Below are positions 13,247 to 34,237 of a DNA stretch of 52,224 nucleotides, piece by piece. The position numbers and the translations under genes were made by a program. Source of the stretch: a virus (lineage: Duplodnaviria > Caudoviricetes); IMG/VR virus record IMGVR_UViG_3300032242_000862, positions 1 to 52,224 of that record; one strand, 5' to 3'. Under the pieces are notes generated by a model. The model saw nothing but the letters and a program-made list of their open reading frames with translations, ran no database searches and was not told the origin of the DNA. The stretch's first letter is position 1. Each line of letters opens with the position of its first letter.

Positions 13247-14062
13247 ATGAGAAATGTAAAACTGAACGACATCAGGATCGACGGCGGCACCCAATGCCGT
13301 GTTGAGATCGACCAAGCGCTGATCTATCACTACGTAGATTGCATGAAAAAAGGAGACGTGTTTCCATTGATGGAGACTACATTTGATGGATCAACATATT
13401 GGTTAAACGAAGGCTTTCACCGTTATCACGCTTACAAATTGTTGGGTCTCAAAACCGTTGAAATTTTTTACAAGCCGGGCACCCTACAAGATGCAATCCT
13501 TGCGGCTTTGAAAGCAAACAGCAAGCACGGCAAAAACTTGACCATCGCTGACAAAGAAAACAAGGTCAAGATGGCTTTGGCCATCGAGGGCTACGACCAA
13601 AAGTCGGACTACGAAATTGCCAAGATCTGTGACTTGTCGCAGTCATTCGTGGCTGGTGTTCGCAGCCCTGAAAAGAAGGAAAAACAGCGTCAAGCCAAAG
13701 AGAAAAACATCCAGAAACAGGCCGAAAAGCTCAAGGCCGAGAAGCAGGCAAATACTAGTCAGACTAGTAGTGAAAATACAACACCAAGGGAAAACACTGA
13801 TAAAAATGTAGGTTTTGAGCCGTCCAAAGAAGAGTTGGCAGCGAACGAACTGGCCATGCAGGCTGACATGGAGATGCTTTACAAACTGCTGGAAACCGAC
13901 GAGCCACTGAAGTTGGCGCATGAAGAGATAACTCGTTTGAATCTGCGTGTGGCGCAACTTGAGACACGGTTGTCTTCATTGATGACTGAGAAAAACGAAG
14001 CAGTCAAAGATGCCAAACGTGCGCAAGCACAACTGGACAAAATCAAGAAAGCCAAAAAATGA
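13247..14062 (+). CDS. ParB/Srx-domain protein with HTH and C-terminal coiled coil (271 aa)
   Basis: GFHRYHA fits the ParB GxxRxxA motif; N..HG; HTH-like SDYEIAKICDLSQSFVAGVR; C-terminal heptads. Confidence 0.8.
   Translation: MRNVKLNDIRIDGGTQCRVEIDQALIYHYVDCMKKGDVFPLMETTFDGSTYWLNEGFHRYHAYKLLGLKTVEIFYKPGTLQDAILAALKANSKHGKNLTIADKENKVKMALAIEGYDQKSDYEIAKICDLSQSFVAGVRSPEKKEKQRQAKEKNIQKQAEKLKAEKQANTSQTSSENTTPRENTDKNVGFEPSKEELAANELAMQADMEMLYKLLETDEPLKLAHEEITRLNLRVAQLETRLSSLMTEKNEAVKDAKRAQAQLDKIKKAKK
13753..13769. repeat. 17-bp perfect palindrome TACTAGTCAGACTAGTA, copy 1 (inside the parB-like gene)
   Basis: 8-1-8 inverted repeat; recurs at 26557 and 34177. Confidence 0.9.
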
Positions 14063-15582
14063 ACAAAGACCTAGCGCCAAGTGAGCGTGATGATGGATTC
14101 CCTGCCCCACGACCTTTTCAAATTACCGCTCACAATTCCCTTCGCCAAGGGTTTCGTGACGGCCACAAGAACCAACTGATCATGGCCCCCACGGGGGCTG
14201 GGAAGACTTACCTTGGCCTGCGCATCTGCCGCGAGGCCATGCAAAAGGGCAAGCGTGCGGTGTTTCTGTGTGACCGCACCACTTTGATCAACCAGACCTC
14301 TGAAGCTGCCGACGGTTATGGCTTGAACAATCATGGTGTGATCCAAGCCAATCATCAGCGACGCAGGCCAGATGAGTTGCTGCAGATTGCATCGGCCCAA
14401 ACCATAGCCAAACGTGGCTACTGGCCCAAGCTCGACGTTCTTGTGGTCGACGAAGCCCACACACAGATGAAGGTATGGACTGAATACGCAATGAACAGTG
14501 GTGCGGCTGTAATTGGTTTATCAGCTACGCCATTCAGCGTTGGCCTTGGCAAGATCTTCAGCAACCTGATCAACGCCACCACCATGCACGATTTGACTCA
14601 GTCAGGCGTGTTGGTGCCCATGCGGATCTTTTCTTGTACCAAGCCCGACATGCGCGGAGCCGCTACCTCTGGTGGTGAGTGGACAGAAAAGGCCGCAGAA
14701 GAGCGTGGCTTGGAAATCATTGGTGACGTTGTCAATGAGTGGTTGAAATTCGGCGACAACCGCAAAACCATTGTCTTCGGAGCCACCATCAAGCATTGCG
14801 AGGAAATCGCCAAGCAGTTCATCAATCAAGGCGTGATGGCCGCTGTGTTTACCTCCGAAACCACTCCCAAAGAACGTCAGAACCTATTGGACGAGTACCG
14901 CAAACCCAATGGATACTTGAAGGTCCTGATCAGTGTCGAGGCCCTTGCCAAGGGCTTTGATGTGCCTGACGTGGGCTGTATCTGCGATGCACGGCCACTG
15001 CGCAAGTCATTGAGCACGGCCATCCAGATGTGGGGGCGTGGCCTACGGTCGTCGCCTGACACGGGTAAAAAAGATTGTTACCTGCTGGACTTCAGCGGCA
15101 ACATCGTTCGGTTTGCAGAGGACTTCACTGAGGTGTTTTTCAACGGCCTTGACTCGCTGGATGCGGGGGACAAGCTGGACAAAAACATTCGCAAGGATGA
15201 AGACTACGAAGTGCGTGGATGCCCTAAATGTGGGTTCAAGCCATTTGTGAAGCGATGCATGGCTTGTGGTCACGAAAAGATGGCTGCGCCCCGTGTTGAG
15301 GCATTGCCCGGCCACATGCAGGAGATCTTTATTGGTGAGGGCAAAAATAAGAAGAAGCTGGCCGACAACTCTGAGCACCTGTGGCATCAGTTGGTCACCT
15401 ACGCTCGGATTCACTCCAAGCCTGAGACCCAGCAGGGCCGGGCGTATCACCTGTTCAAGAAGATCACGGGCCAAGACCCAATGTGGCGATTCACCACCGC
15501 ACCCACTGTTGAGATTAACCGCGCAGTTTTGGGCAAAATCACACAGATGAACATGGCTTGGAAGAAGGGGACACAGCGATGA
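14059..15582 (+). CDS. SF2 DEAH-box helicase with Zn ribbon
   Basis: APTGAGKT, DEAH, SAT, GFDVP and QMWGRGLR motifs plus CPKC...CMAC. Confidence 0.93.
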   Translation: MNKDLAPSERDDGFPAPRPFQITAHNSLRQGFRDGHKNQLIMAPTGAGKTYLGLRICREAMQKGKRAVFLCDRTTLINQTSEAADGYGLNNHGVIQANHQRRRPDELLQIASAQTIAKRGYWPKLDVLVVDEAHTQMKVWTEYAMNSGAAVIGLSATPFSVGLGKIFSNLINATTMHDLTQSGVLVPMRIFSCTKPDMRGAATSGGEWTEKAAEERGLEIIGDVVNEWLKFGDNRKTIVFGATIKHCEEIAKQFINQGVMAAVFTSETTPKERQNLLDEYRKPNGYLKVLISVEALAKGFDVPDVGCICDARPLRKSLSTAIQMWGRGLRSSPDTGKKDCYLLDFSGNIVRFAEDFTEVFFNGLDSLDAGDKLDKNIRKDEDYEVRGCPKCGFKPFVKRCMACGHEKMAAPRVEALPGHMQEIFIGEGKNKKKLADNSEHLWHQLVTYARIHSKPETQQGRAYHLFKKITGQDPMWRFTTAPTVEINRAVLGKITQMNMAWKKGTQR

Positions 15583-16454
15583 ACTTCATTGACTTTGCAA
15601 GGGTCCATGGTGTGGCCATCGATCCCAACCGCCTGTATGCGTCTGAACGGATCAAGCGGTGCGGTACGGTCGAGAAGCCAAACTCAGGCAACGGGGCCTA
15701 CTTCTGGGACGGTTCCCGTGGCTGGGTCATGGATTGGTCAGGAGAGGCCAGAGTCATCTGGTTTGAAGATCCCCATGCAAAACCATGGACTGACGAAGAA
15801 AAGCGTTTGTGGGCCGCAAAAAGGGCTTCTGCGGCCACTGAACAGCAACGCCAGTACGAACAGGCAGCACTGCAGGCCGACATCACCCTGCGGTCGGCAA
15901 CGCTGGACAACCATGCCTACCTCGAGATCAAAGGGTTTCCCGAGACCCGTGGGCTGGTGCTGGAGGACAAATTGTTGATCCCCATGCGCAACGTGGTGAG
16001 CAACAAGCTGCAGGGCTACCAGTTGATCTGGTGGAACATGCCAGAGCGCAAGTACGAGAAGAAAATGCTGCACGGCATGCGTGCCAAAAATGCAGTGTTG
16101 TTTTTAGGCTCTAGGGATTTACCCGAATGCTGGCTTGTGGAGGGTTTTGCAACGGGTTTGTCGGTGCGTGACGCCCTGCGCAGTGTGGGTTTGCCTGCAT
16201 CTGTGGTGGTGTGTTTCTCGGCGTCGAACCTTGCGGCAGTGGCCGATCAGATCAAAGGCAAACGGTACATTTTTGCGGACAACGACGAGTCGAAGACGGG
16301 AGAAAAGACTGCGATGCAAACTGGTTTGCCTTGGACGATGGCCGACACTGTGGGCTGGGATGCGAACGACCTGCACCTGAAGGACAGTTTATTTGCAGTG
16401 GTTGAAAAGATCATGCAATTGCGCAAGCGAGAGTTAATTTACACAGAAACTTAG
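15579..16454 (+). CDS. Toprim-domain primase-like protein
   Basis: VEGFATG, ADND and DAND Toprim motifs; YL..KG and LLIPM precede them; adjacent to the helicase. Confidence 0.85.
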   Translation: MNFIDFARVHGVAIDPNRLYASERIKRCGTVEKPNSGNGAYFWDGSRGWVMDWSGEARVIWFEDPHAKPWTDEEKRLWAAKRASAATEQQRQYEQAALQADITLRSATLDNHAYLEIKGFPETRGLVLEDKLLIPMRNVVSNKLQGYQLIWWNMPERKYEKKMLHGMRAKNAVLFLGSRDLPECWLVEGFATGLSVRDALRSVGLPASVVVCFSASNLAAVADQIKGKRYIFADNDESKTGEKTAMQTGLPWTMADTVGWDANDLHLKDSLFAVVEKIMQLRKRELIYTET

Positions 16455-16459
16455 GGGTA

Positions 16460-16489
16460 TTGACGCCCCTTGATATGTCTTGATAAAAT
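16460..16489 (+). promoter_or_regulatory. Sigma70-type promoter
   Basis: TTGACG-18 nt-TAAAAT with an extended -10 TG. Confidence 0.65.
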
Positions 16490-16495
16490 TTGCGC

Positions 16496-16610
16496 AACAC
16501 CGGGCTTGGAACATCCGGTGGTAAAGCTGTTAAGTCAGACCCTGACCCCGCATGGGGTAGTCACCCTTTTTGGGTGGTGTTCCACGGGGTCTGTCTTAAC
16601 AGCTTTTTTG
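16496..16610 (+). ncRNA. Candidate structured RNA (multi-stem, possible pseudoknot)
   Basis: Stems CACCGG/CCGGTG, AAAGCTGTTAAG/CTTAACAGCTTT, CAGACCC/GGGTCTG, ACCCC/GGGGT and CACCC/GGGTG; loop TGGAACA is complementary to TGTTCCA. Confidence 0.6.
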
Positions 16611-16856
16611 CTTTCTGTTCCCGTACTCCGCACGATAGCAAGCACCCCAGTCGTGGTGGCGCGGAAGGAAAGCGTAGCTGGTATGACTTCGGTCTAGGGG
16701 GCAGTTCCCGAATAATCCAGTCGGCTGGTCGAATCATCAAGCCGAGGGGTAGAACGTAAAACCGTTCACATGATGATCCCGTTCGCGGGGGTGAAGCACC
16801 TTCCCTCTCTACCTCTTCAGTGGGGTAGGGGGGTCTTTGGGTGAAAATTATTAAGA

Positions 16857-16882
16857 GGGGGAAAGGCCCCCCAACTTTTTTT
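16857..16882 (+). terminator. Possible intrinsic terminator
   Basis: GGGGG-AAAGG-CCCCC stem, then a T7 run after 4 nt. Confidence 0.45.
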
Positions 16883-16909
16883 GCTCAGACTCTAATTTCG
16901 TGTTATAGT
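16881..16909 (+). promoter_or_regulatory. Promoter with operator-like box
   Basis: TTGCTC-17 nt-TATAGT, containing TCTAATTTCGTGTTATA. Confidence 0.65.
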
Positions 16910-16944
16910 GTCTCCACCACAATGAGTGGGTTACAGGAGAAACG

Positions 16945-17328
16945 ATGACCACGTACACACATTGGGATGTGATGTTGGCAAGCCCGACAGATCCCCTGCC
17001 TGAGAAGAAACGCCAGTACCAAATGAACCTGATGCGCAATGCATTGGAGAACTGCAAGACCAAGCCTGAAGTGATGGACATTGCAGCCTTGGCGACCGCT
17101 GTCGACCTGATGGACACTCTGCGCGAGATGGGGCATCTGGAAGACGCTGACAACGCCTTGGAGGACGCAATGACCGCCTTGATGCATGACACCTTCAACG
17201 ACCTCGAGATACGCCTGTTTGAGGGCATCCTCGAGGACTATGAGATGGCTATGAACAACATCCCAGCACGGATCATGATCATGGCCCACCGAGCCACCGA
17301 AAAACGCATTGAAAGGATAGCAGCATGA
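16945..17328 (+). CDS. Hypothetical protein (127 aa)
   Basis: AGGAG RBS; first gene after the promoter. Confidence 0.7.
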   Translation: MTTYTHWDVMLASPTDPLPEKKRQYQMNLMRNALENCKTKPEVMDIAALATAVDLMDTLREMGHLEDADNALEDAMTALMHDTFNDLEIRLFEGILEDYEMAMNNIPARIMIMAHRATEKRIERIAA

Positions 17329-17546
17329 AACAAGAACCTAGAGCATTCCCAAGCAAATATAACGACCCAATTGATGGCGATGAAGTTGTTCATTACGGCA
17401 TGACCTTGCGCGATTACTTTGCGGCTAGAGCAATGTCTCTGTATTTTCAGGGTCCTGACGCAAATGAAATAGTTGGTCATCCCGATGCAATCGCAGAATG
17501 GTGCTACATCATGGCTGACTCTATGCTGAAAGCGAGGAATCGATGA
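17325..17546 (+). CDS. Small phage protein with GMTLRDYFAA motif
   Basis: AFP...GMTLRDYFAA...ADSML is a recurrent phage accessory protein pattern. Confidence 0.75.
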   Translation: MKQEPRAFPSKYNDPIDGDEVVHYGMTLRDYFAARAMSLYFQGPDANEIVGHPDAIAEWCYIMADSMLKARNR

Positions 17547-17881
17547 CCGAAGAACAATTGGAGAAAGCAATTGCCACGCATGCACGCAGGCGCAAGGTGT
17601 TCATGGACAACGGACTGAACGAAAGCGACGCATGGGACTTAGCCGAGCGGATGTTTACGCGAGACAAAGAGAAGCTAGACGACCGCCGAGTGTGCTTTGA
17701 ATGCGTACACCTCAAAGGCCGCGAATGCCATGGCATCACAGACCGATTCGGCAAACCCACTACACAGATGCGATTCATCCTGCAGCGGTGCCCATCATTC
17801 AAGTTGAAGGGCAAGCCATTGACAGACGAAGAGCGCAACCAAATCGATGCATCACTACAACATCAGGAGCGAGACCAATGA
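17543..17881 (+). CDS. Hypothetical Cys-cluster protein (112 aa)
   Basis: DDRRVCFECVHL...C...LQRC motif; ATGA coupling. Confidence 0.7.
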   Translation: MTEEQLEKAIATHARRRKVFMDNGLNESDAWDLAERMFTRDKEKLDDRRVCFECVHLKGRECHGITDRFGKPTTQMRFILQRCPSFKLKGKPLTDEERNQIDASLQHQERDQ

Positions 17882-18099
17882 AAGTCAAAGAATTGATCGA
17901 GCAGTTGCAAGCCCTTGACCCAGACATGGAAACCATGCGCCATGGGTATGAGGGCGGGGTTGAAAACGTCTCCTCGCTGAACATTGAAAAAGTCGCGCTG
18001 AAAGTCCACCCAGAGTGGTATTACGGGTCGCACGAGACGATTGACGAAGACAACGAGTATCCCGGACATGAACATATCACCGCAGTAATCATCTCGTAA
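17878..18099 (+). CDS. Hypothetical protein (MKVKELIEQLQ family)
   Basis: ATGA coupling; common phage N-terminal motif. Confidence 0.7.
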   Translation: MKVKELIEQLQALDPDMETMRHGYEGGVENVSSLNIEKVALKVHPEWYYGSHETIDEDNEYPGHEHITAVIIS

Positions 18100-18108
18100 G
18101 GAGCACCC

Positions 18109-18564
18109 ATGAGAACACTTGGAATTGACCCCGGCGCAACAGGCGCAATTGTTTTGCTGGAAGACGGCCAACCCATCGAGTGGACGGCCATGCCTACGCT
18201 CAAGGTCGGCACGGCCACAAGAGTCAATGCACCAGCCCTTGCTGACTGGATCGCATCAACATGCTGCACGCAGGTCTATGTTGAACAGGTTCACGCCATG
18301 CCCGGCCAAGGCGTGACATCGATGTTCAACTTCGGCCACTCATGCGGTACGGTGATCGGTGTTCTAGGTGCAATGAACATCCCCTACGCACTGGTGACGC
18401 CGCAAGCATGGAAGAAGGCTGCAGGCCTGATCGGCACTGACAAAGACGCCGCACGCTCACGAGCCATTCAGATGTGGCCCAAGTGGCGTGACCTCGACAA
18501 GAAGGGCAAAGGCCAAGCACTGGCAGACGCCGCACTGATCGCGGCATATGGAGAACAGACATGA
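18109..18564 (+). CDS. RuvC-like Holliday junction resolvase
   Basis: LGIDPG..GA, VYVE, FNFG...G, P..WKK and ADAALIA motifs. Confidence 0.85.
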   Translation: MRTLGIDPGATGAIVLLEDGQPIEWTAMPTLKVGTATRVNAPALADWIASTCCTQVYVEQVHAMPGQGVTSMFNFGHSCGTVIGVLGAMNIPYALVTPQAWKKAAGLIGTDKDAARSRAIQMWPKWRDLDKKGKGQALADAALIAAYGEQT

Positions 18565-18902
18565 ACCAGAAGGACATCAACGACGCCGTGGACTATCTGT
18601 ACACCCATGGCCGCAAGTACGCAGAAGCCAAGGCCCACCGCACGTACCTTGAGGAATACCGCAAAAGCCAGAAGGCAATCCTGATGAAGAAGGCATTGTC
18701 TGATGGCCGCGCCAAATCGGCTGCAGTGGCCGAAATCGAGGCATATGCAGACCCAACCTACATCGAGGTGCTCAAAGGGCTGGAAGAGGCCGTAGAGGCC
18801 GAAGAAACGCTTCGGTGGGGGTTGGTATCGGCTCAGGCTCGAATCGACTGCTGGCGATCAACTGAGGCCTCCAACAGGGTCATGGACAGAGCAGTATCAT
18901 GA
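18561..18902 (+). CDS. Helical protein, possibly a recombination mediator (113 aa)
   Basis: AEAKA...LEEYRKS...EAYAD..Y...WRS.EAS pattern; lies between two nucleases. Confidence 0.55.
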   Translation: MNQKDINDAVDYLYTHGRKYAEAKAHRTYLEEYRKSQKAILMKKALSDGRAKSAAVAEIEAYADPTYIEVLKGLEEAVEAEETLRWGLVSAQARIDCWRSTEASNRVMDRAVS

Positions 18903-19171
18903 ACAGCAGCTTCACCAAGGCCGAACGCGAATGGGTGGGGCTTGTCAAGGAGCAACCCTGCTCAGTCTGCGAAGCGCCCGGCCCCTCTGCAGCCCACCAC
19001 ATCAAGCAGGGGAGCCACTACACCTGCGTGGCCCTGTGCTACTCATGCCACCAAGGCTCGACCATGGGCTGGCACGGGCAGAAGCGTGCATGGGCCATTG
19101 CAAAGATGGACGAGCACGACGCCCTGAACGTCACCATCCGCAATATCTACAAGCAACTCACAAAGATGTAA
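18899..19171 (+). CDS. Ref-like HNH / Zn-finger nuclease (90 aa)
   Basis: CSVC...AHH...LC..CH...GWHG motif. Confidence 0.7.
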   Translation: MNSSFTKAEREWVGLVKEQPCSVCEAPGPSAAHHIKQGSHYTCVALCYSCHQGSTMGWHGQKRAWAIAKMDEHDALNVTIRNIYKQLTKM

Positions 19172-19209
19172 CAATTTGTAACAGACAGCAAAATAATGTT
19201 CCACAACAC

Positions 19210-19229
19210 TTCTAACTGTGTGTTAGAAT
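19210..19229 (+). promoter_or_regulatory. Palindromic operator-like box overlapping a -10 element
   Basis: TTCTAAC-TGTGT-GTTAGAA (7-5-7 palindrome) containing TGnTAGAAT, upstream of a gene with a strong RBS. Confidence 0.6.
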
Positions 19230-19271
19230 TCTTCTACCGCAACGTTAGCGGGTTTAACTAAGGAAATCATC

Positions 19272-19589: not shown

Positions 19590-19596
19590 ACCAAAC

Positions 19597-19610
19597 GGGG
19601 CTTCGGCCCC
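19597..19610 (+). other. cUUCGg tetraloop hairpin (mRNA stability or processing element)
   Basis: Intergenic GGGGC-TTCG-GCCCC with no U-tract. Confidence 0.6.
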
Positions 19611-19624
19611 ATCAGGAGAACACC

Positions 19625-20002: not shown

Positions 20003-20012
20003 GGAGAACGCC

Positions 20013-20272: not shown

Positions 20273-20273
20273 C

Positions 20274-22566: not shown

Positions 22567-23030
22567 TTCCAGCAAAAGAAATTGATGGCGAATTGTGGAT
22601 AAAAGCCTCAGACCATCATCAAGCTATCAAAGAAGCCTTGGCACAGCCAGCACCTGTGCAGGAGCCTGTGGCGTGGAATGTGATTGACCCTTTTGGGAAT
22701 ATTGTCGCCACCGAAAAAAATGCAATTCGCGGTTGGGCGCGTGTAGAAGGATACAAACCAACAGTGGAGGGGTTACTTGGTTTTCATGAGAAAGGTTGGC
22801 GTGTTTTACCCGCAGCACAGCCAGCACCTGTGCAGGGGCCTGACTGGAAAGAAGAATACCAAAAGGCTGTAGATTTGCACTGCTTAACACTTGACGAACT
22901 GCGTGAGGCTAACGTGGAAATTAAGCGATTAAAAGCAATGGTTGAGTCGCAAGATATGGTGCTTGTTCGCAGTGCCGAGCGAATTGTTGACTTGCAGACA
23001 CACATTGAAAACCTTGAGGGGGAAACATGA
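22563..23030 (+). CDS. Modular hypothetical protein with two AQPAPVQ boundary motifs
   Basis: 28-bp repeat at 22641-22668 and 22815-22842 (1 mismatch). Confidence 0.65.
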   Translation: MIPAKEIDGELWIKASDHHQAIKEALAQPAPVQEPVAWNVIDPFGNIVATEKNAIRGWARVEGYKPTVEGLLGFHEKGWRVLPAAQPAPVQGPDWKEEYQKAVDLHCLTLDELREANVEIKRLKAMVESQDMVLVRSAERIVDLQTHIENLEGET

Positions 23031-24752: not shown

Positions 24753-25118
24753 ATGGCAACAGGTAATAAGGGGGCAGGAAGGCCTGCAGGAAGCCCAAAT
24801 AAGGCCACAACAGAGGCAAGGCAGGCCATAGCCTCATTTGTCAATGGAAACGCTCACAGGCTCACTGAGTGGCTCGATCAGGTAGCAGGTGGTGTGAAGG
24901 CCATCGATGAGGAGACGGGCGAAGAGCGGTACGTGGTCCCACCGAACCCAGCCAAGGCCTTTGACATGTTCCAGTCGGTGGTGGAGTACCACGTGCCCAA
25001 GCTGGCACGCATGGAGCACACGGGCAGTGACAACCAACCGTTGGTGATCGAGCATAACGTCAATGTGTTCGGGGAACTGCTCAAGAACATCAAGATGAAG
25101 CGGCAGACAGAGGGATGA
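24753..25118 (+). CDS. terS: Terminase small subunit
   Basis: GRPAGSPNKAT motif, EY..PKL..MEHTG; directly upstream of and coupled to terL; GGAGG RBS. Confidence 0.75.
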   Translation: MATGNKGAGRPAGSPNKATTEARQAIASFVNGNAHRLTEWLDQVAGGVKAIDEETGEERYVVPPNPAKAFDMFQSVVEYHVPKLARMEHTGSDNQPLVIEHNVNVFGELLKNIKMKRQTEG

Positions 25119-26551
25119 GCGTAGCAGCGGCCATCCTCGAGGACGATGAACTCCTGCAGGCCGAGTTTGCCAAGCTGTCTCCCGTCGATCAGGCTGTCAC
25201 CAACTGGCAATTGAGTTGGCTGCAGATACAGGCCCATAAGCACCAGATTGAGCCGCCGGGCAACTGGTGGAACATTTGGCTCATGCTGGCTGGCCGTGGA
25301 GCAGGCAAGACTCGAGCGGCATCTGAGACGCTGGCCGCATGGGCATGGGAGCAGCCGGGCACCAGATGGCTCGTCAGCGCCCCAACGAGCGGTGACTTGA
25401 AAGGCACATGCTTTGAGGGTGACTCAGGGCTGCTAAAGGTCATTCCGTCCATCCTGATCGAGAAGTACAACTCGAGCCTGCATGAGATACACCTGATCAA
25501 TGGCTCATTCATCAAGGGCATCCCCGCCAGTGAGCCTGAGCGGTTCCGGGGGCCACAGTTCCACGGTGGGTGGCTGGATGAGTTGGCCGCATGGGAATAC
25601 CTGCGCGACTCGTGGGACATGATTCAGTTCGGCATCCGTCTTGGCCAACGGACCAAGCTGATCTGCTCGACGACACCCAAGCCCAAAGAAGTGATCATGG
25701 AGTTGATCGAGCGTGAGGGGGACGACGTGGCCATCACCCGCGCCAGCACGTACTCCAACATCAAAAACTTGGCCCCATCGTTCCAAAAGCAGATCCTGCA
25801 GTACGAGGGCACCAACCTTGGCCGTCAGGAGATCCATGCGGAGATCATTGACCCAGAAGAGGGCGGCATCGTCAAGCGCGACTGGTTCAGGCTCTGGCCC
25901 GACGGCAAGGCATTCCCTAAGCTGGAGTACATCATCCAGTCCTACGACTGCGCCACCAGCGACAAGACCGTCAACGACCCCACAGGATGCATCACGCTGG
26001 GCGTGTTCAAGCCTATGGACGGCGGCATGTGCGTCATGGTGCTGGACTGCTGGCAGGAGCACCTGCAGTACCCTGACTTGCGCCCCAAGGTGATCGACGA
26101 GTTCGAGACGGTCTACGGTGAGGGCCGGGCCAAGAAGCTGGTGGACCTGATCCTCGTGGAGGACAAGAGCGCAGGCATATCCCTCATTCAGGACTTGCAA
26201 CGTGCCCACCTGCCCGTGCATGCGTACAACCCCGGCAGGGCCGACAAGATCCAACGCCTGTCCATCGTGGCCAACATCATCAAGGCTGGCCGGGTGTGGG
26301 TGCCTGAGAGCAGCAAGCGCAAAGGCTTTGTACGTGATTGGGCCGAGGGCATGGTCAGCCAGATCTGCTCATTCCCTGAAGGGACCGCACACGATGAGTT
26401 TGTCGACTGCATCAGTCAGGGCCTGCGGTATCTGCGTGATGCAGGCTGGATCAGCATCGATGCCCCACCAAGGGACGACATCGAGCCCGAAGACATCAGC
26501 GACGCTGAGATCTTCAACATGAAGCACCGTGTCAATCCATATGGAGCATAA
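25115..26551 (+). CDS. terL: Terminase large subunit
   Basis: Walker A GRGAGKT, RFRG, Walker B WLDE, STTP; nuclease motifs SYDCA, VEDK and HDEFVD. Confidence 0.95.
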   Translation: MSVAAAILEDDELLQAEFAKLSPVDQAVTNWQLSWLQIQAHKHQIEPPGNWWNIWLMLAGRGAGKTRAASETLAAWAWEQPGTRWLVSAPTSGDLKGTCFEGDSGLLKVIPSILIEKYNSSLHEIHLINGSFIKGIPASEPERFRGPQFHGGWLDELAAWEYLRDSWDMIQFGIRLGQRTKLICSTTPKPKEVIMELIEREGDDVAITRASTYSNIKNLAPSFQKQILQYEGTNLGRQEIHAEIIDPEEGGIVKRDWFRLWPDGKAFPKLEYIIQSYDCATSDKTVNDPTGCITLGVFKPMDGGMCVMVLDCWQEHLQYPDLRPKVIDEFETVYGEGRAKKLVDLILVEDKSAGISLIQDLQRAHLPVHAYNPGRADKIQRLSIVANIIKAGRVWVPESSKRKGFVRDWAEGMVSQICSFPEGTAHDEFVDCISQGLRYLRDAGWISIDAPPRDDIEPEDISDAEIFNMKHRVNPYGA

Positions 26552-26555
26552 AGGA

Positions 26556-26574
26556 TTACTAGTCTGACTAGTAA
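26556..26574. repeat. Palindrome copy 2, TTACTAGTCTGACTAGTAA (intergenic after terL)
   Basis: 9-1-9 inverted repeat; the core is the reverse complement of copies 1 and 3. Confidence 0.9.
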
Positions 26575-26602
26575 GTAGAAACCCTAACATGAAGGAAATG
26601 AG

Positions 26603-26797: not shown

Positions 26798-26836
26798 CGC
26801 CCTTGGGGTGTGTCAGACATATGGAGACTGCCCTGA

Positions 26837-26865
26837 TTGCCCAAGGCGTCGACCGAAGGCATAAT
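26837..26865 (+). promoter_or_regulatory. Sigma70-type promoter for the large protein and head genes
   Basis: TTGCCC-17 nt-CATAAT, 22 nt before the ATG at 26888. Confidence 0.55.
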
Positions 26866-26887
26866 TGGGCATTCACTGAGGGCAACC

Positions 26888-29800
26888 ATGGCAAAGAAAC
26901 CTTACCGCGACCCCACGACCACAAAGATCGAAGACTGGAAATGGCGCGACCTGCCTGAAGTGCAAAAGGCTGTGCCACTGAAAGCAGTTCCAGACTACAT
27001 TCAAAAGGGTTACGGCGAGTTCATGAACCAACAATTGGCACGTGCCAATGCTGGAGCACTGACGCCACGGGATCTGCTCAAGGCTTACACCATCACCCAG
27101 TCAAGCATTGGCCGTGGTGGTCTACCGCATTCAACGGCCACCAAGACTGGCATGCGACTGCCCAACACGGGCGGCGAGGTCAGGCCTGAAGGCGCATTTG
27201 CTGAGTGGCTGGGATCGCGTGAAGGCCAGATGTACCTTGACGCAGCCGAGCGCGGTGAGTTGCACCATGGCGCACTGAAGGACATCCAAGAGAAATTCGC
27301 CCCGTTCGGCAAGCAGAATCAATTGGCCGAGCAAATGATGTATGCGGCCAACACTGTGCCGGGCATGGCCAAGTCATTGAACAAAGCGATTGCAGGCCCG
27401 ACCGAGAATTACCGCAACTGGGCAGAGCAACTGAAGGGCATTGCAGGGGCCAAATCGGGCTTTATAGGCTCTATGCTGGGCAGGGGTGACCTACCTACCT
27501 TGGACGCCCGGCAATTGAACCTGCATGCCTTGCCTGCCAACGTAGGCGTATCTTCGATCATGAACCGTGGCAAGGGCAAAGGTGCCCGTGAAGCAGTTGA
27601 CCGCCTGATTGCCCGTCAGCGTGCCATGGGGCTTGAAGTTGACCCATCGATGCAGCCACACTACCAGCACCTGACCCATCATGCAGTGTGGGATGCAGTG
27701 GGCAAAAATCAGACAACCCATGACGACATCATCAAGGCCATGCGTGGTTATGAGGATGGCGGCTCGATCAATATGGCCCAAGGAGGCAACGTGAATCCAA
27801 AATATCCGTCCATTCAAGAGATGATTCAGAAACTGCAGGCGGCAGGCCGCACTCCTATCATCCCCATGCCCAACCGTTGGTTTGCTGACCCAGTGAAACA
27901 TCCCCATCAGCAAAAGATGATTGAGCGCGTGCTGGCAAAGACTGGATACGGACGCGAAGGTTTCCCATCAGGGGCATACATCAATCCGCAGACTGGTGAG
28001 CCCATGGACTTTGACATCATGCACGACTTGGGTGTGGCCATTGATCCAGTCACTGGTCGGCCCATGATGTCGGGCATCAAGTCTGGCCTGACTGAAATAG
28101 ATCCAAAATATGGATCGATCACAAAAAGCAATCTGGTGCGCAAAGGATTGTTCAAGCATGAAGGCGGCGACGAACTGCTCAAGAATCTTGCATTCCTTGC
28201 AACCATCGAGAAAAGCGGCAAGGGCCATCATTACGGCTTGGCAACGCAGTACGAATCTCCTGCCGAGCTTGTCAACACAATGACTGGTCAAAACCCAACG
28301 CTCAGGCCACACAGCCGTGGTGACATCTTCGGTGTTGGCGATGAAGTTGGTCGCATATCCATTCAGGGCAAGCACCATCCGGTCTACGAAAAGCTGGTGG
28401 TTGCGCCTGCTGGCTCTGACGTACAGGGCAAGAAGCTACATAAAGCCCAAGGAGGCGACGTGAAACCATTTGACTATGAGAATCCAGAGCATGTGCATGG
28501 CGTCGCGCACCACATGGCCAAGCACAAGGACTTCAGTCCGATCCCCAATGCGGCCAAGCATTTGGGTGAAATGCTGTCCGAGGGCAGCTACAAGCACATT
28601 GAAGACCCACGGTTCCAGCAAGCCATCCGCAAGATGGGTCATGGTGCATATTTCCTGCGTGGCAAAGAAGGCAAGACCCTGCATCACATGAAGTCAGGCG
28701 GCACACCGTCACTGGCTCAGATGAAGGTTCATTTGGCTGAAGGTGGCCAACCTGACTACAGCGAAGAACAACTCAAAAGCATTGCAACGTACTTGGCCAC
28801 CAACCCATCGGCTGAAGATCTGGCAAGTGCTCAACAACAATTTGGTGTGAGCAATGAAGGCTTGCAAGAAGCCAAGGATTACGCAGCAGCACATCAAGCA
28901 GCCGCTGAAACATCGCCTACTGCCAAAGCGCAAAGCGCAAGCCCCACTGGAAATGTGACCACTGGCCCCGGCAATGACAACTTTGTCCCTGCTGGTGGAA
29001 GCACGAAGGAAGGTTACTCACGAGATTACAGCGCGGCAGAACTTGCGGCCATTCGAAGCAGTTTTGACCAATATCAGACCGACCCCAAGAAATTGGTTGA
29101 ATTGATGAACCAATATGGCGTCAATGAAAAAGATTTGGCATTAGCAAGAACTGGAAACGCTAGAAACGAAACCTTGATGGGTTACGACAACTTGTTGCTG
29201 CAAGGCGGCGCAAAGGCTGGTTTTGGTGGCATGACACAAGCGTCTGACATGACCGCGCAAGACAAGGCATACCTTGACTGGATGCTGACTCAACCCAGCA
29301 TTGCTGGTGGCGGCACAAGGGCAGACGATTACAAAAAGCAAGGCATTGATCCATACACCGATCCGCGCATCCTCAACATGGCCAAAGCGCAAAATGCTCG
29401 CGTGGTAGACCGTGCAACTTTGTTGGACAACACTGCCAGAGATGCGGCAGCAAAGGCTGGAACTCCTTTTACCAGCACAAAACTGTACGACAACTCAGGC
29501 CAGCCCAATGATCAGATTGCCCCATGGCTGAACCCCAACGCGATTGCCAATGAAAAGGCATTCAAGGATGCAATTGCTGCCCGAAATGCAGCAGCCACAG
29601 CCGCAAGCCCAAAGGTGGTGATTGGTGGTGGCAACGCAACCCCAGCAGGCACAACAGGCACCACAACGCCTACAACAGATCCAGCGGTTCAAGAGGCTCG
29701 CAGTGCGCTTGATGCAATCAACAAAATGACTGGCAGCTATACCCAGATCAATGCAGCACGTGACAACTTTTACAACACAACAAAGTACACGCCAGAACAA

Positions 29801-31609
29801 ATATCTGCAGCCATGAATGGTGTTTTGTCGCCTGCGTACATCAAACAATTGATGGCCAAAAACCCACAGTTTGCAACAGGTCACGCTCAAGGCGGCATGG
29901 TTGGATATGCAGGTGGTGGCAATGTCAAGCCCAGCATTGCCCAAATGCGTCTGGCATTGAATTCAAAGAACCCAGTGGACTTCCAAGGCATTGGGATTGA
30001 AGAAGCACCCAACATGTCGCCCAAGGTGTACATGCCACCGTCCAAAGACGAGTCTGGACTTCCAGCCGTTGGCGGCGTGGACTTAAATCCACAACAACCC
30101 GGCCTGCAATTGACATCGCCTCCACCACAGCCTCCACAAGGCGCTCAACCACCACAGGGTGGCCAACCCCCTCAAGGCGGTCCAATGGGCGCTCCTATGG
30201 CCCCTCCTGCTGGTCCTACGCCACCCATGGGCAACATGCTGTCGTTGACACCACAAGGCCAAGCCATGCAGGCCATGCAACCACAACAGCAAAAACCACC
30301 GGGCATGAAAAGCGGTGGTGACGTGCAAGGAATGAGTGATGGCGAACAGCCAAAATTAACCAAAGAACAACGCAAAGAAGTTGCCAAAAAATGGGCTGGT
30401 CAACTGCATTACGAACCAGCACCTGCAATGTCAAAACGTGATATTGAACAACATGCTGAAAGAATGACATCTCAAATGATGGGCATTGACAACCCACATA
30501 AAAAAACAAAGCAACAACTTGACAGAGAAAAAAACCTCATGGCTGACATTCGGTACAAACGAATGAAAAACATCCCTAACGTTGACTATGCACAACTGAA
30601 AAATGCTTTTATGGTTGGCATTCCGGGCGACCCTACGCTTGGTGGTGTGATTCCAGTCTCCAAAATGAAAAAGCGTTATGGATTGCAAATGCCAACAGCA
30701 GGGGCTACGTTGCGCTCCATTGACAACAAGCCATTGGAAAGTTCGGTTCCACTATATGGCGGCACCAGATATGGAGCCTATGGTAGCCCCAATGCTTGGG
30801 CAAGCGATCTGGGAGCAAGTAGAGGGTTGTTCAACGTTGTCCAGAAACTGCACGAAGAAGATCCTTCGCGTGAAATCTATGGCAACACCCACCGCATGTC
30901 GAACGAATCAATCAACCATGCGATACACATGTTGGATGCGGCAATTTCGCATATGCGTCCGCATGCACAACCAAAAGAACACATTGATTATCTGAACAAT
31001 TTGATTCGCAATGTGCAGACGTCCACCAATGACATTGGGGACGTAAAGCCCCATTTTGCTGGTTTTGAAAACCCCGAAGATTTGATGTTGCAAGGGTCGT
31101 TGGATGCCAAGCTGCGCAAGAAAATCTTGGGTGTTTTGGCAACCAACAAGCATTTTCCCGGCGGCAAGCAAATGATTGACGACATCTATTTTGCAATCAG
31201 TCACCCTGAATTGCGCAATTTAGAAGTTGGCACTGCTGGACACGGTGTTCTGAAGTTTGATCCCACCCGAAAACTGGAAGATGAAATTTCACAGCATCCA
31301 ACCTATGGTCATGACATCCCTTCAACGCTTATTGGCAAGTCGCGTTACCCGATCCCACTGGCAATTGCAGCCCCAAGATCGATGCAACGAACCATGAGAA
31401 AGGCAAAGGAGATGGGTTTGACACCTGCTCAACCATTCAACGATATGTCTCGCAGCATTATTCGTGAGCCAATAGATGAGCAGTACATCAACCAATTGGG
31501 TGAATACGAAATGGCAATGCGCAAGCGCCTTGGGTACAAAAAGGGCGGTAAGGTTAAACTCAAACCCAATCAAGACACCATGCGTCTTGAACTGTCAAGG
31601 AAGAAATAA
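26888..31609 (+). CDS. Large modular (polyvalent-like) protein, 1573 aa; N-terminal HhH-GPD-like domain; modules separated by xAxGG/xKxGG motifs
   Basis: GAGG RBS before the ATG at 26888; nine GG motifs at domain boundaries; coupled to the portal gene (TAATG). Confidence 0.7.
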   Translation: MAKKPYRDPTTTKIEDWKWRDLPEVQKAVPLKAVPDYIQKGYGEFMNQQLARANAGALTPRDLLKAYTITQSSIGRGGLPHSTATKTGMRLPNTGGEVRPEGAFAEWLGSREGQMYLDAAERGELHHGALKDIQEKFAPFGKQNQLAEQMMYAANTVPGMAKSLNKAIAGPTENYRNWAEQLKGIAGAKSGFIGSMLGRGDLPTLDARQLNLHALPANVGVSSIMNRGKGKGAREAVDRLIARQRAMGLEVDPSMQPHYQHLTHHAVWDAVGKNQTTHDDIIKAMRGYEDGGSINMAQGGNVNPKYPSIQEMIQKLQAAGRTPIIPMPNRWFADPVKHPHQQKMIERVLAKTGYGREGFPSGAYINPQTGEPMDFDIMHDLGVAIDPVTGRPMMSGIKSGLTEIDPKYGSITKSNLVRKGLFKHEGGDELLKNLAFLATIEKSGKGHHYGLATQYESPAELVNTMTGQNPTLRPHSRGDIFGVGDEVGRISIQGKHHPVYEKLVVAPAGSDVQGKKLHKAQGGDVKPFDYENPEHVHGVAHHMAKHKDFSPIPNAAKHLGEMLSEGSYKHIEDPRFQQAIRKMGHGAYFLRGKEGKTLHHMKSGGTPSLAQMKVHLAEGGQPDYSEEQLKSIATYLATNPSAEDLASAQQQFGVSNEGLQEAKDYAAAHQAAAETSPTAKAQSASPTGNVTTGPGNDNFVPAGGSTKEGYSRDYSAAELAAIRSSFDQYQTDPKKLVELMNQYGVNEKDLALARTGNARNETLMGYDNLLLQGGAKAGFGGMTQASDMTAQDKAYLDWMLTQPSIAGGGTRADDYKKQGIDPYTDPRILNMAKAQNARVVDRATLLDNTARDAAAKAGTPFTSTKLYDNSGQPNDQIAPWLNPNAIANEKAFKDAIAARNAAATAASPKVVIGGGNATPAGTTGTTTPTTDPAVQEARSALDAINKMTGSYTQINAARDNFYNTTKYTPEQISAAMNGVLSPAYIKQLMAKNPQFATGHAQGGMVGYAGGGNVKPSIAQMRLALNSKNPVDFQGIGIEEAPNMSPKVYMPPSKDESGLPAVGGVDLNPQQPGLQLTSPPPQPPQGAQPPQGGQPPQGGPMGAPMAPPAGPTPPMGNMLSLTPQGQAMQAMQPQQQKPPGMKSGGDVQGMSDGEQPKLTKEQRKEVAKKWAGQLHYEPAPAMSKRDIEQHAERMTSQMMGIDNPHKKTKQQLDREKNLMADIRYKRMKNIPNVDYAQLKNAFMVGIPGDPTLGGVIPVSKMKKRYGLQMPTAGATLRSIDNKPLESSVPLYGGTRYGAYGSPNAWASDLGASRGLFNVVQKLHEEDPSREIYGNTHRMSNESINHAIHMLDAAISHMRPHAQPKEHIDYLNNLIRNVQTSTNDIGDVKPHFAGFENPEDLMLQGSLDAKLRKKILGVLATNKHFPGGKQMIDDIYFAISHPELRNLEVGTAGHGVLKFDPTRKLEDEISQHPTYGHDIPSTLIGKSRYPIPLAIAAPRSMQRTMRKAKEMGLTPAQPFNDMSRSIIREPIDEQYINQLGEYEMAMRKRLGYKKGGKVKLKPNQDTMRLELSRKK

Positions 31610-34086
31610 TGGCTGAACAAGACGATTTTCCGATTGAAGAGCAGGACGACGGCAGTGCTGTCGTTGATCTGCCAGACATGACGACTGAAGAACAGCCAGA
31701 CGGCTCTGCCATCATTGAACTTGATGATGGGCCTGAGTTCAACCCAGAGTTTTACGACAACCTGTGCGATTCTGTTGAATTCAGCACGTTAGGTTCGTTG
31801 GCCATGCGCTACCTTGACTTGCTCGAGACTGACAAGCAAGCCCGTGAAATGCGGGACAAGCAGTACGAAGAAGGCATCAAGCGTACTGGTATGGGCAACG
31901 ATGCCCCCGGTGGTGCCACTTTCATGGGTGCCAGCAAAGTTGTTCACCCTGCCATGGCCGAAGGTTGCGTGGACTTTGCGGCCCGTGCAATCAAAGAACT
32001 GTATCCACCAGATGGCCCCGTCAAGACCAAGATCATTGGCAAGATGGACGACATGAAGTCCGAAAAGTCAGAGCGCAAGCGTGACTTTTTGAATTGGCAG
32101 ATCACTGAGCAGATCGAAGAATTCCGCGACGAGCAAGAGCAGTTGCTGACCCAGTTGCCATTGGGCGGCTCACAGTACTTCAAACTGTGGTTTGACGAGC
32201 AAAAAAAGCGTCCCGTTGTGGAGTTTCTGCCAATTGACCGTGTGATCTTGCCGTTTGCGGCCACCAACTTCTATACCGCAGAGCGTGCGGCAGAAGTCCA
32301 CGAGATCACCGAGTTTGAGTTTGATCGCCGCATCCGCACTGGCATGTACCGCGACATCAATGCCAGCTTTGCTTCTGGCACTTTGGATCAAAACAAAGTC
32401 GAGCAGGCCAACAACAAGGTTGAAGGCAAACAGTTCCAAGAAAACAAGGACGGTATCCGCAAGGTTTACCACATCTACACGTATCTTGAACTGGACGAAG
32501 ACAAGAAGACCAAAGGCGAATACGCTCCGTACATCTTGATGATCGATGAGTTGAGCAACTCCGTTGTTGGTTTGTATCGCAACTGGGAAGAGAACGATCA
32601 AACCATGACCAAGCTGGACTGGGTCGTGGAGTTCAAATTCATTCCGTGGAGGGGCGCATACGCCATCGGGCTACCCCAACTCATCGGAGGCCTTTCAGCA
32701 GCCTTGACGGGCGCTCTGAGGGCCTTGCTGGACACCGCACACATCAACAACTCGGCCACCATGCTGAAGTTGAAAGGTGCCAAAATCAGCGGCCAGTCAC
32801 AGCAGGTTGACGTGACCCAGATTGTGGAGATCGAAGGCGCACCGGGCGTGCAAGACATCCGTCAGATTGCCATGCCCATGCCGTTCAACCCGCCAAGCGA
32901 CGTGTTGTTCAAGTTGTTGGGCTGGCTCGATACCGCAGCCAAAGGCGTGGTTACCACCAGCGAAGAGAAAATTGCTGACGTCAATGCTCAGGCACCAGTT
33001 GGCACAACTCAAGCCCTGATCGAACAAGGTGCGGCTGTGTTCTCGGCCATCCATGCACGTTTGCATGACTCGCAAGCCCGTGTGCTCAAAGTGCTGTGCC
33101 GTCTGAACCGCTGGCATTTTGATGAGATGAAGAAAAGTGATGTCGTCACTGACTTGGACATCACCCGCGAAGACTTCAACAAGAACACCGACGTGGTGCC
33201 CGTCTCCGACCCGCACATCTTCTCTGAGACCCAGCGTATGGCTCAGAGTCAGGCTGTGTTGGCATTGGCTGACAAGCACCCTCAGCAGTTCAACATCAAT
33301 GCTGTTCTTGGCCGTGTCCTGAAGCAGATGAAGGTGCCCAACATCAATGAACTGTTGCGGGACACACCAGCCCCAGAACAGCGCACATCGGCAGACGAAA
33401 ATGCGGCAATGCTCATTGGCCAACCAGCTTATGCGTACTTGCAACAGGATCACATCGCGCACATTCAGGACCACCTGCAGTTTGCAATGAACCCATTCTT
33501 GGGCCAGTCGCCATTTGCAGATCCAAACTACCTGAATCACGTGACAGAGCACATCAAGCAGCACATGACGCTGTGGTATTTGAACCGCTCAAATGGCTAC
33601 GTGGAAAAGTCCATGGGCAAGCCTGTGGACGACTACGACGATCCACGACTTACATCGACAATCGACAAGGTCTACACGACCGTTGGTGCGCACGTCATGC
33701 TCGACACGCAAGAAGTATTTGGCCAGTTCCAACAGGCGCTGCAAATGCTTATGCAAATGGTCCAGCAGAAGAAAAGCGCACCACCACCATTGCCGCCAGA
33801 TGCGCAAGTGGTCAAGGACACCAGCATGGCCGAGACCCAACGCAAGACACAAGCGGATCAGGCTGGCATCCAGTTGGACATGCAACGTCTGCAGGCCGAC
33901 ATCCAGAAGCACCAGATGGACAATCAAACAAAGATTGCCATCGAAAATGCAAAATTGACGCACGAGACAATCCAAGGAATGGCTCAGGCTCAACCACCCG
34001 TGGCACCACCAGCACCACCTGCTGCGCCTGCCGCACCTACAATGCCACAACCACCTCAAGGAGTTCCAAATGGCAACCTCGGATAA
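31609..34086 (+). CDS. Portal protein (825 aa)
   Basis: Size and position; VVHPAMAEGCVDF, GPVK, LPLGGS.YFK.WFD, PVGTT.ALIEQ, HARL and VPVSDP motifs; Q/P-rich helical barrel. Confidence 0.85.
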   Translation: MAEQDDFPIEEQDDGSAVVDLPDMTTEEQPDGSAIIELDDGPEFNPEFYDNLCDSVEFSTLGSLAMRYLDLLETDKQAREMRDKQYEEGIKRTGMGNDAPGGATFMGASKVVHPAMAEGCVDFAARAIKELYPPDGPVKTKIIGKMDDMKSEKSERKRDFLNWQITEQIEEFRDEQEQLLTQLPLGGSQYFKLWFDEQKKRPVVEFLPIDRVILPFAATNFYTAERAAEVHEITEFEFDRRIRTGMYRDINASFASGTLDQNKVEQANNKVEGKQFQENKDGIRKVYHIYTYLELDEDKKTKGEYAPYILMIDELSNSVVGLYRNWEENDQTMTKLDWVVEFKFIPWRGAYAIGLPQLIGGLSAALTGALRALLDTAHINNSATMLKLKGAKISGQSQQVDVTQIVEIEGAPGVQDIRQIAMPMPFNPPSDVLFKLLGWLDTAAKGVVTTSEEKIADVNAQAPVGTTQALIEQGAAVFSAIHARLHDSQARVLKVLCRLNRWHFDEMKKSDVVTDLDITREDFNKNTDVVPVSDPHIFSETQRMAQSQAVLALADKHPQQFNINAVLGRVLKQMKVPNINELLRDTPAPEQRTSADENAAMLIGQPAYAYLQQDHIAHIQDHLQFAMNPFLGQSPFADPNYLNHVTEHIKQHMTLWYLNRSNGYVEKSMGKPVDDYDDPRLTSTIDKVYTTVGAHVMLDTQEVFGQFQQALQMLMQMVQQKKSAPPPLPPDAQVVKDTSMAETQRKTQADQAGIQLDMQRLQADIQKHQMDNQTKIAIENAKLTHETIQGMAQAQPPVAPPAPPAAPAAPTMPQPPQGVPNGNLG

Positions 34087-34237
34087 AGAACAAATGGGCG
34101 TAAACGTGCGCCAACACAAACGCATGGCCATGGGCGAAAAGCTGACAGGCCAAACCCTCCAACCCAAAGGCGGGAATACTAGTCAGACTAGTAAAACTAA
34201 AGGTGGCCTTTCTGGAATGAAGAAGCGCAATGATTGA
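34070..34237 (+). CDS. 55-aa basic protein (MATSDKEQ...KGGNTSQTSKTKGG...)
   Basis: Translated by hand; AAGGAG RBS; contains palindrome copy 3. Confidence 0.6.
   Translation: MATSDKEQMGVNVRQHKRMAMGEKLTGQTLQPKGGNTSQTSKTKGGLSGMKKRND
34177..34193. repeat. Palindrome copy 3, TACTAGTCAGACTAGTA
   Basis: Identical to copy 1 over 19 bp including the upstream AA. Confidence 0.9.

Follow-up and report, generated by a model that had tools for sequence, protein, structure and literature searches.

The window analysed here is the whole of virus record IMGVR_UViG_3300032242_000862 (Duplodnaviria; Caudoviricetes), 52,224 bp in length. It encodes a 271-aa protein with a predicted ParB fold (P0001, nt 13247–14062, + strand) and carries three copies of a perfect 17-bp palindrome, one of them inside the P0001 gene. 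These palindromes are very probably the sites to which the ParB-fold protein of this phage itself binds, a conclusion drawn mainly from related phages, in which the same genome positions switch palindrome along with the recognition helix of the protein.

Palindrome copies in the genome

The record carries an exact 123-bp terminal repeat and is complete, so the three palindromes represent the full count for this genome. A scan of the whole sequence for exact matches to TACTAGTC(A/T)GACTAGTA returned the three copies that had been reported in the initial annotation of this DNA, at nt 13753, 26557 and 34177. The same annotation had proposed that the scan be repeated with mismatches and expected counts. 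No further match appeared in the genome when up to three mismatches were allowed, and none was seen in dinucleotide-preserving shuffles (0/100). The half-site 8-mer GACTAGTA occurs six times, all within the three palindromes, against an expectation of 0.16.

The first copy (TACTAGTC-A-GACTAGTA, nt 13753–13769) lies within the ParB-like open reading frame (ORF), in codons 169–175 of its linker-coding DNA (N169–S174). The second (TACTAGTC-T-GACTAGTA, nt 26557–26573) is intergenic and starts 5 nt after the stop codon of the large terminase gene, terL (nt 25115–26551, + strand), the 3' end of which marks its position. The third (TACTAGTC-A-GACTAGTA, nt 34177–34193) is found within a small ORF of 55 codons that follows the portal gene (nt 34070–34237, + strand) and has a homologue in related genomes. 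ORF translation confirmed the earlier observation that both coding copies, the first and the third, specify the peptide NTSQTS.

An ATG occurs exactly 36 nt past the last base of each copy (nt 13806, 26610 and 34230). Two of them open the next ORF; the remaining one, inside the ParB-like gene, is out of frame (ATG-TAG). The constant gap is taken as a coincidence, as the corresponding distance in relatives ranges from 9 to 311 nt. Additional motifs noted close to the palindromes of other contigs (AACCCTAA and hairpins of the form CCCTA..TAGGG) are not enriched in this genome, and a 46-bp match to MW202484.1 (nt 22641–22686) is ordinary coding sequence.

Relatives and their in-gene palindromes

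When IMG/VR was scanned for exact copies of the palindrome, 51 stretches were recovered from 36 contigs, with several to a contig and with unrelated flanks. Five of these contigs encode a homologue of P0001 (45–69% identity), and in each of the five genes the palindrome sits where the linker is encoded; most of the other contigs are fragments. A scan of this type is biased to identical sites, and relatives were therefore also gathered by protein homology, which gave 120 listed proteins, 71 viral loci, 80 metagenome loci and 22 bacterial-genome loci. Alignment-based searches were needed for this, as a locus search with a single protein gave only one distant relative. The family is large, with 17,864 representatives at E up to 1e-3 and 2,718 clusters (50% identity) at E up to 1e-30. 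Among GenBank phages the only matches were MW202545.1 (56.6% identity, 'parB-like nuclease domain') and one unannotated record, and no cultured close relative was found in that set. Relatives with 30–42% identity reside in large chromosomal contigs of Variovorax, Glaciimonas, Duganella, Simplicispira and a planctomycete.

The motif TS[QL]TS is present in the linker of only 29 of 121 close proteins. Other linker peptides, e.g. TNQIS, SNLIT, CNPIT and SPTT, back-translate to other palindromes. In 77 of 119 distinct homologues, the stretch from nt +330 to +720 of the gene contains a perfect 8-N-8 palindrome, where 0.006 would be expected per gene, and an in-gene palindrome with arms of 8–10 bp occurs in 9 of the 21 bacterial-genome loci analysed. 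The test proposed in the initial annotation, whether relatives carry their own palindrome within the gene and whether it covaries with the helix-turn-helix, gave a positive result on both counts, the second of which is described below.

Two of the records gathered show unusual arrangements. The highest copy number seen, eight copies of a CCAGTT-N-AACTGG palindrome, is found in genome G063 (loci L153–L155, helix type ET), where three copies stand in tandem with 24-bp spacing inside the ParB-like gene. A complete 87.7-kb phage (G008, locus L013) has a single exact copy of the 17-bp palindrome, abutting a consensus-like TTGACA-17-TATAAT promoter, and no P0001 homologue. This copy may be a chance match, since a handful of exact matches is estimated to occur by chance in a collection of that size, or it may be an operator for something else.

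Covariation of the recognition helix and the palindrome arm

The arm of the palindrome covaries with the first two residues of the predicted recognition helix, Q132 and S133 in P0001 (codons at nt 13640–13645, + strand, coordinates by arithmetic from the ORF start). The dipeptide QS at these positions is associated with the arm TACTAGTC, QP with TACTAATC, KP with GAGTAATT and AP with GTGTAATC, while RS is found with (TA/GC)GTAGTC, ES with TACTAGT(C/T), ET with GTCCAGTT and RP with TACGAATC. Proline at the second helix position is matched by A at arm position 6 (TAAT arms) in all 36 cases, and serine or threonine by G (TAGT arms) in 43 of 45. The two exceptions are one distant relative and locus L070. 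The latter (nt 10496–10524, helix KS) has two perfect palindromes in the linker, one of the TAGTAGTC type and one of the TACTAATC type, which overlap by 5 bp, and this double palindrome may be an intermediate of a specificity switch.

The association was examined on a phylogeny of 81 rows from which the columns of the helix and the linker had been left out. Helix position 2 and the arm base each changed 19 times on this tree. Independent pairs on well-supported branches were concordant in seven of eight cases, with one tie and none opposite (sign test, p=0.016). An earlier tree test with 40 rows was underpowered (three concordant, none opposite, one tie, p=0.25).

Distal copies in related genomes

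The sites that lie away from the ParB-like gene follow the helix type as well. Across loci and genomes, with ten arm types tested, 51 distal sites were cognate vs 6 non-cognate, at distances of 7–30 kb. Sites of the TAGT and TAAT types never mix in the 38 records compared, and no hybrid site was seen among them. Linked co-inheritance cannot explain these distant copies.

The 14 complete or nearly complete genomes carry 2–8 copies each of their own palindrome type, at shared positions. The protein's own linker has a site in 14/14 genomes (one imperfect), and in 8 of the 11 genomes that possess terL a site, frequently a tandem pair, is situated 12–43 bp after that gene. Sites are also seen at the end of the homologue of ORF 18899–19171 (9/14 genomes, and not this phage), inside a 939-aa tail-region gene (4/14) and in the small ORF after the portal gene (3/14). 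The palindrome found at a given position differs from phage to phage and in every case fits the helix. In the present phage nt 19172–19271 are without a palindrome; a different inverted repeat, TTCTAAC-N5-GTTAGAA, is found at about nt 19209–19227.

These data bear on two other explanations of the palindromes. The first is that they are bound by another protein, such as the Cro-like protein encoded next to P0001, a different phage protein or a host protein, and that the match to the helix is a by-product of linkage. The helix codons are about 110 bp from the in-gene site, and the two could travel together by recombination. When only the 14 genomes were compared, a test for perfect separation gave columns that separate by chance in many proteins, and it was replaced by a mutual-information test with 37 loci. 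Across 2,653 alignment columns from 14 proteins encoded within 10 kb, the only perfect predictors of A or G were the S133 column and the palindrome-encoded codon. The next best column scored 0.71, and neither the Cro-like protein nor any of 12 other neighbouring proteins had a column that reached that of S133. A host factor would not change its specificity between closely related phages, and the proportion of cognate sites at 7–30 kb is not what linkage would give; a different binder is considered highly unlikely.

The second explanation needs no protein at all, the palindromes being RNA hairpins, terminators or small mobile palindromic insertions. Many copies do lie just after stop codons. 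A hairpin requires only pairing, yet all copies within a genome are the same 17-mer, and that 17-mer changes with the helix of the protein. There is no T-run or terminator at the sites, and the flanks are not conserved, so that no longer element is carried with them. Palindromes acting without a protein are the least probable of the explanations weighed here, to the point of being scarcely credible.

The ParB-like protein and its architecture

P0001 is predicted to begin with a ParB/Srx-like nucleotide-pocket domain (aa 1 to ~98), followed by a helix-turn-helix (121–139), a charged helix (141–169), a disordered linker (170–189) and a coiled coil (194–270, formed by helices 194–216 and 219–270). 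In the AlphaFold2 model, the helix-turn-helix consists of helices 121–128 and 132–139. The mean predicted local distance difference test score is 80.7, with values around 90 over aa 1–140. The disordered stretch (170–189) is exactly the palindrome-encoded part of the protein. All three features on which the initial annotation had based its ParB-like assignment, namely a GxxRxxA motif (GFHRYHA), a helix-turn-helix and a C-terminal coiled coil, are present in the sequence and the model.

Structure searches with the model (Foldseek) support that assignment, with ParB, Noc and KorB as the top matches (E 1e-6 to 1e-5, ~140 columns, probability 1.00). The matches span the N-domain and the helix-turn-helix, and include ParB 6sdk_B (E 9.9e-7), with Myxococcus ParB 7bnk and structure 6t1f also among the best, Noc 7nfu (root-mean-square deviation 4.2 over 138 columns) and KorB 8qa9_A (E 1.2e-5, deviation 4.1 over 148). 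Sulfiredoxin was matched at E 5e-4. At the sequence level PHROG 1033 ('ParB-like partition protein') matches aa 2–137 with an E-value of 1.4e-16. A Pfam scan of P0001 (hmmscan) gave no match at threshold, and a precomputed match to PF02195 exists for 8 of the 120 listed close homologues.

Boxes I and II of the ParB fold can be aligned, Q16-C-R18 corresponding to QPR and G56-F-H-R59-Y-H-A62 to GERRWRA of Myxococcus ParB. Conservation was examined in 150 representatives with a median identity to P0001 of 33%. The GxxRxxA and Q-x-R motifs are 95–98% conserved in this set, and residues Q16, R18, D47, G48, G56, H58, R59, G78, A83, N91, H94 and G95 are 95–99% conserved. Helix positions 132–133 display 40 different dipeptides among the same proteins. 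As seen in this alignment, the P0001 family is one with a fixed pocket and a fast-changing, putatively DNA-reading tip. The GFHRYHA sequence is closer to sulfiredoxin than to ParB, and by its nucleotide motif P0001 seems to stand nearer to sulfiredoxin within the superfamily. Judged by modelled fold and by motifs, the architecture of P0001 is that of ParB, within the ParB/Srx fold superfamily.

A pocket domain of this kind could also be that of an enzyme directed to its sites by the helix-turn-helix, either as a site-specific nickase or nuclease or as a guide or activator of a DNA-modifying enzyme. There are precedents, in that a phage ParB homologue activates a thymine dioxygenase (PMC13229309) and ParB–methyltransferase fusions are reported as common in phages (PMC12704722). 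No dioxygenase or methyltransferase was detected among the 70 ORFs scanned, however, and the ParB proteins associated with dioxygenases are without a DNA-binding domain (PMC13229309). A dimer that cut the palindrome would, in addition, break the phage's own genome. An aimed enzyme is accordingly rated highly improbable.

Gene neighbourhood

The ParB-like gene lies downstream of a gene for a Cro/YdaS-like helix-turn-helix protein (nt 13017–13217, + strand), in which no alignment column tracks the palindrome type. It is directly followed by an SF2 (ResIII/DEAD) helicase gene (nt 14059–15582, + strand), an adjacency that is conserved, and by a Toprim-type primase gene (nt 15558–16454, + strand), the third gene of a conserved module. 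Divergent from the Cro-like/ParB-like operon, with 41 bp between the start codons, is a gene of the NGO0469 family of 'phage replication initiation protein' (nt 12265–12975, − strand; NCBIfam NF046043, 210 bits vs a cut-off of 75), which is present in 14/14 close genomes. The initial annotation had recognised no ParA, Rep or integrase. This stands for two of the three: no ParA was found by Pfam and PHROG scans of 70 ORFs or by a six-frame search for AAA_31/CbiA, and no integrase by ORF scans or six-frame searches of the genome. It does not stand for Rep, in view of the NGO0469-family gene.

The lack of a ParA is relevant to whether P0001 serves in partition. A ParA-binding motif has been defined as [LFI]G[KR]G[LFI] (PMC12704722); it is absent from P0001 on inspection, and the protein begins directly with the fold. 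With neither a ParA partner nor a ParA-binding motif in its predicted products, P0001 is not a member of the ParABS systems. It could nonetheless provide for plasmid-like persistence or act on the host, the site-bound protein using host ParA or loading host SMC. The plasmid prophage N15 offers an example of dispersed centromere palindromes, and a site within the protein's own gene is typical of chromosomal parS. Set against these parallels are the results of the ParA and motif searches, and the location of relatives inside large chromosomal contigs, including a complete chromosome of 7.4 Mb, which points to integrated prophages that need no partition. Partition or host hijack is for these reasons regarded as very unlikely.

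The helicase gene directly follows the ParB-like gene in 14/14 close genomes. In distant loci (30–40% identity) a helicase gene follows in 12/14, once with an insertion-sequence transposase between, and a Toprim/PriCT primase in 8/14. In the two distant loci without a helicase, its place is taken by genes for a Dam methylase and for an AAA_25 or Prim-Pol protein. A complete planctomycete chromosome carries two paralogous ParB-like genes (L258 and L265) about 32 kb apart, each with its own 19–21-bp in-gene palindrome; downstream of each are a Dam methylase gene and one for an AAA_25 or Prim-Pol protein, with no SF2 helicase there. In four distant loci, which represent temperate relatives, a divergent DicA/RstR-like repressor gene lies upstream, with matches that stay under the thresholds of those families. 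Among the 16 upstream ORFs that were tested from distant loci there is no recognised initiator, the NGO0469 family included, and P0001 itself has no match to an initiator family in Pfam, PHROG or NCBIfam. Among the loci compared, the ParB-like gene is the conserved first member of a predicted ParB-like/SF2-helicase/primase module, and the conservation of this module makes a role in replication a serious alternative.

In that case P0001 would be a sequence-specific initiator that recruits the adjacent helicase and primase, with the in-gene palindrome as the primary origin and the others as secondary loading sites. Besides the gene order, the position of the gene just downstream of the repressor in temperate relatives and the absence of a recognised initiator upstream of the distant homologues, this would agree with the in-gene site being the most conserved position (14/14) and often the sole copy within 10 kb in distant relatives, and the type-specific pairing of protein and site resembles lambdoid O/ori pairs. 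Most phages, however, have a single 17-bp in-gene site and no iteron array, and there is no AT-rich unwinding element beside it (mean AT 0.44 in the next 40 bp). The lineage has a separate 'replication initiation' gene of the NGO0469 family in all 14 genomes, and the sites after terL, after the portal gene and in a tail gene keep their positions and switch type with the protein, which is hard to explain if they are spare origins. No ParB-fold protein is known to act as an initiator, and literature searches found none. Cumulative GC skew was uninformative as evidence for an origin, since its minimum, 138–305 bp upstream of the gene in 5/9 genomes, is a coding-strand switch. Origin recognition is, on balance, unlikely, while clearly ahead of partition, an aimed enzyme or a different binder.

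Elsewhere in the genome, a 1,590-aa ORF (nt 26837–31609, + strand) for which Pfam and PHROG gave no match lies between terL and the portal gene and is kept in at least 10 of 14 related genomes (tblastn). Virion genes, including one with a match to the SU10 adaptor family, occupy nt 51689–52222 and 229–10670 and run past the lysis genes across the terminal repeat, so the start of the record is an assembly cut inside the structural block. No tRNA genes were found in the genome.

Proposed mode of action

If the palindromes are the cognate sites of P0001, a dimer held together by the coiled coil would put one recognition helix on each 8-bp arm. The covariation suggests that residue 133 would read G or A at arm position 6, and residue 132 C or G at position 3. 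A nucleotide-gated clamp is proposed because the N-domain has a nearly invariant pocket of the ParB/sulfiredoxin type. Like KorB, BisD, VirB, Noc and HerB, P0001 may be a nucleotide-gated dimer that docks at the palindromes and possibly closes and slides from them, marking a small number of fixed points in the phage genome and acting on transcription or on genome organisation. Through the in-gene site it would exert feedback on the ParB-like/helicase/primase operon, and through the copies that follow terL and the portal gene it would influence the late gene block. By analogy, a KorB/BisD-like nucleotide-gated clamp or regulator is the first choice for the role of P0001, held tentatively, and the clamp step, which is drawn from the fold and the layout of the sites, is put forward with the same reserve. 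Taken as a whole, sites and mechanism together, the statement is given slightly less than an even chance of being correct. The clamp or regulator reading is one that explains both the architecture of the protein and the conserved positions in the late region.

Several observations count against this proposal. Helix position 1 gave a weaker result than position 2 in the phylogenetic test, with five independent pairs concordant, none opposite and two ties (p=0.06), and the short distance between helix codons and in-gene site means that co-inheritance by recombination could explain part of the covariation. The match of P0001 to Pfam PF02195 (ParB_N) spans model positions 2–90 of 95 and reaches 14.5 bits, below the cut-off of 26.3. 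When a profile of six homologues was compared with solved structures, sulfiredoxin (E 3.3e-4) scored better than Myxococcus ParB (E 0.058). In box III (KANSKHG), the glutamate that serves in hydrolysis of cytidine triphosphate (CTP) by ParB is A90 in P0001, with N91 kept (98%). At the three sites, nothing beyond the level of shuffled sequences was found in searches for sigma-70-like promoters and for terminators or T-runs, and the promoter type of the host may differ. The distance from palindrome to next gene start is not conserved among relatives, as noted above for the 36-nt gap. Given the lack of promoters and this variable spacing, a regulatory role is without direct support. Sliding, long-range control of late genes, compaction and the use of host ParA or SMC, as suggested in the initial annotation, likewise gained no support from this analysis. 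Lastly, the conserved partners of the ParB-like gene are replication genes, and these fit origin recognition better.

Comparison with known systems

The KorB/OB system of the IncP plasmid RK2 resembles that of P0001 in combining a ParB fold and helix-turn-helix with a short palindrome dispersed over a mobile genome of 50–60 kb. KorB has a ParA partner, IncC, and a co-repressor, KorA, and its operators are outside its own gene. P0001, in contrast, has no such partner recognised and has a site in its own gene, and it is encoded by a phage, within a helicase–primase operon. The role of KorB extends beyond partition, as it is both a clamp and a repressor (PMC11790492). Another orphan ParB-like protein of a mobile element with few sites is BisD of ICEclc, described as a CTP clamp that activates distant promoters from a small number of parS-like loading sites and has no partition role in the account given in PMC12409273. 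BisD has an extra activator domain, a partner (BisC), two sites (bisS) and demonstrated CTP binding, whereas P0001 has no extra domain and three sites, one of them in its own gene.

Chromosomal ParB/Spo0J–parS and Noc–NBS provide the best fold matches (6sdk, 7bnk, 7nfu and 6t1f) and have palindromes of similar length. In Bacillus, a parS site lies within the parB gene (spo0J) itself. The specificity of ParB and Noc is set by a few residues of the helix-turn-helix (PMC7383237). Unlike these proteins, P0001 has no ParA, no N-terminal ParA-binding peptide and a minimal DNA-binding part of three helices, its box III is without the glutamate and its Pfam ParB_N match is below threshold. In phage N15, the IR sites are dispersed. 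The N15 protein SopB is a phage-borne ParB homologue with four separate palindromic IR sites (PMC7205306). N15 has SopA and a plasmid life, whereas in the present phage no ParA was found and there is no sign of a plasmid state.

The initiators O of lambda and G38P of SPP1 offer a different parallel, as ori-lambda is inside gene O and SPP1 oriL is inside gene 38. As in P0001, the site is in a linker-coding stretch of the protein's own gene, upstream of helicase functions, and protein and site are paired by type; SPP1 also has a second, distant copy (oriR). O and G38P have an unrelated fold, and their origins contain iteron arrays and an AT-rich region, neither of which is seen here.

Orphan phage proteins with the ParB-CTPase fold (Kaljevic et al. 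2025, PMC12704722) and HerB/YfjB (PMC13370423) resemble P0001 in being orphans carried by mobile elements, and these reports describe them as expressed early and variable in nucleotide preference. According to the former survey such phage proteins are common, and their nucleotide specificity is not predictable from sequence or from AlphaFold3 (PMC12704722). The accessible text of the survey describes no cognate sites for the phage members, and HerB binds the host chromosome and is without a site of the simple palindromic kind (PMC13370423); P0001 differs from both. Literature searches found no account of a ParB-like protein from a phage that combines dispersed sites with one in its own gene and with helix covariation, and the supplements of the survey may list members.

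Significance

Partition, nucleoid occlusion, plasmid silencing and the activation of the integrative conjugative element ICEclc are the settings in which ParB-type nucleotide switches are known. Orphan phage members have been counted before and, in the accessible text of the survey, are not tied to DNA sites or to a function (PMC12704722). The phage member described here is tied, from sequence comparisons, to candidate sites, to two residues that probably read them and to a conserved helicase–primase operon. A broader and distinctly doubtful proposal is that P0001 represents a large, undescribed family of phage ParB-fold switches that form the sequence-specific first component of a ParB-like/SF2-helicase/primase module, with a site in their own gene and at a few fixed positions, and with a two-residue code (Q/E/K/R/A at 132, S/T/P at 133) that has been repeatedly re-set.

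The family reaches prophages of cultured Variovorax (L252), Glaciimonas (G. immobilis, L256), Duganella (D. aquatilis, L268) and Simplicispira (S. metamorpha DSM 1837, L262), which makes nucleotide use, sliding and a role in regulation or replication directly testable. The naturally matched pairs of protein and palindrome are a ready data set on how helix-turn-helix specificity changes, and may be a source of many orthogonal ParB/parS pairs for the labelling of DNA loci. Should the clamp recruit the helicase and primase, phage DNA replication would be started or organised in a new manner, by a nucleotide switch of the ParB type. If the broader proposal is true, the re-setting of specificity would keep co-infecting relatives from cross-talk, much as immunity or incompatibility groups do.

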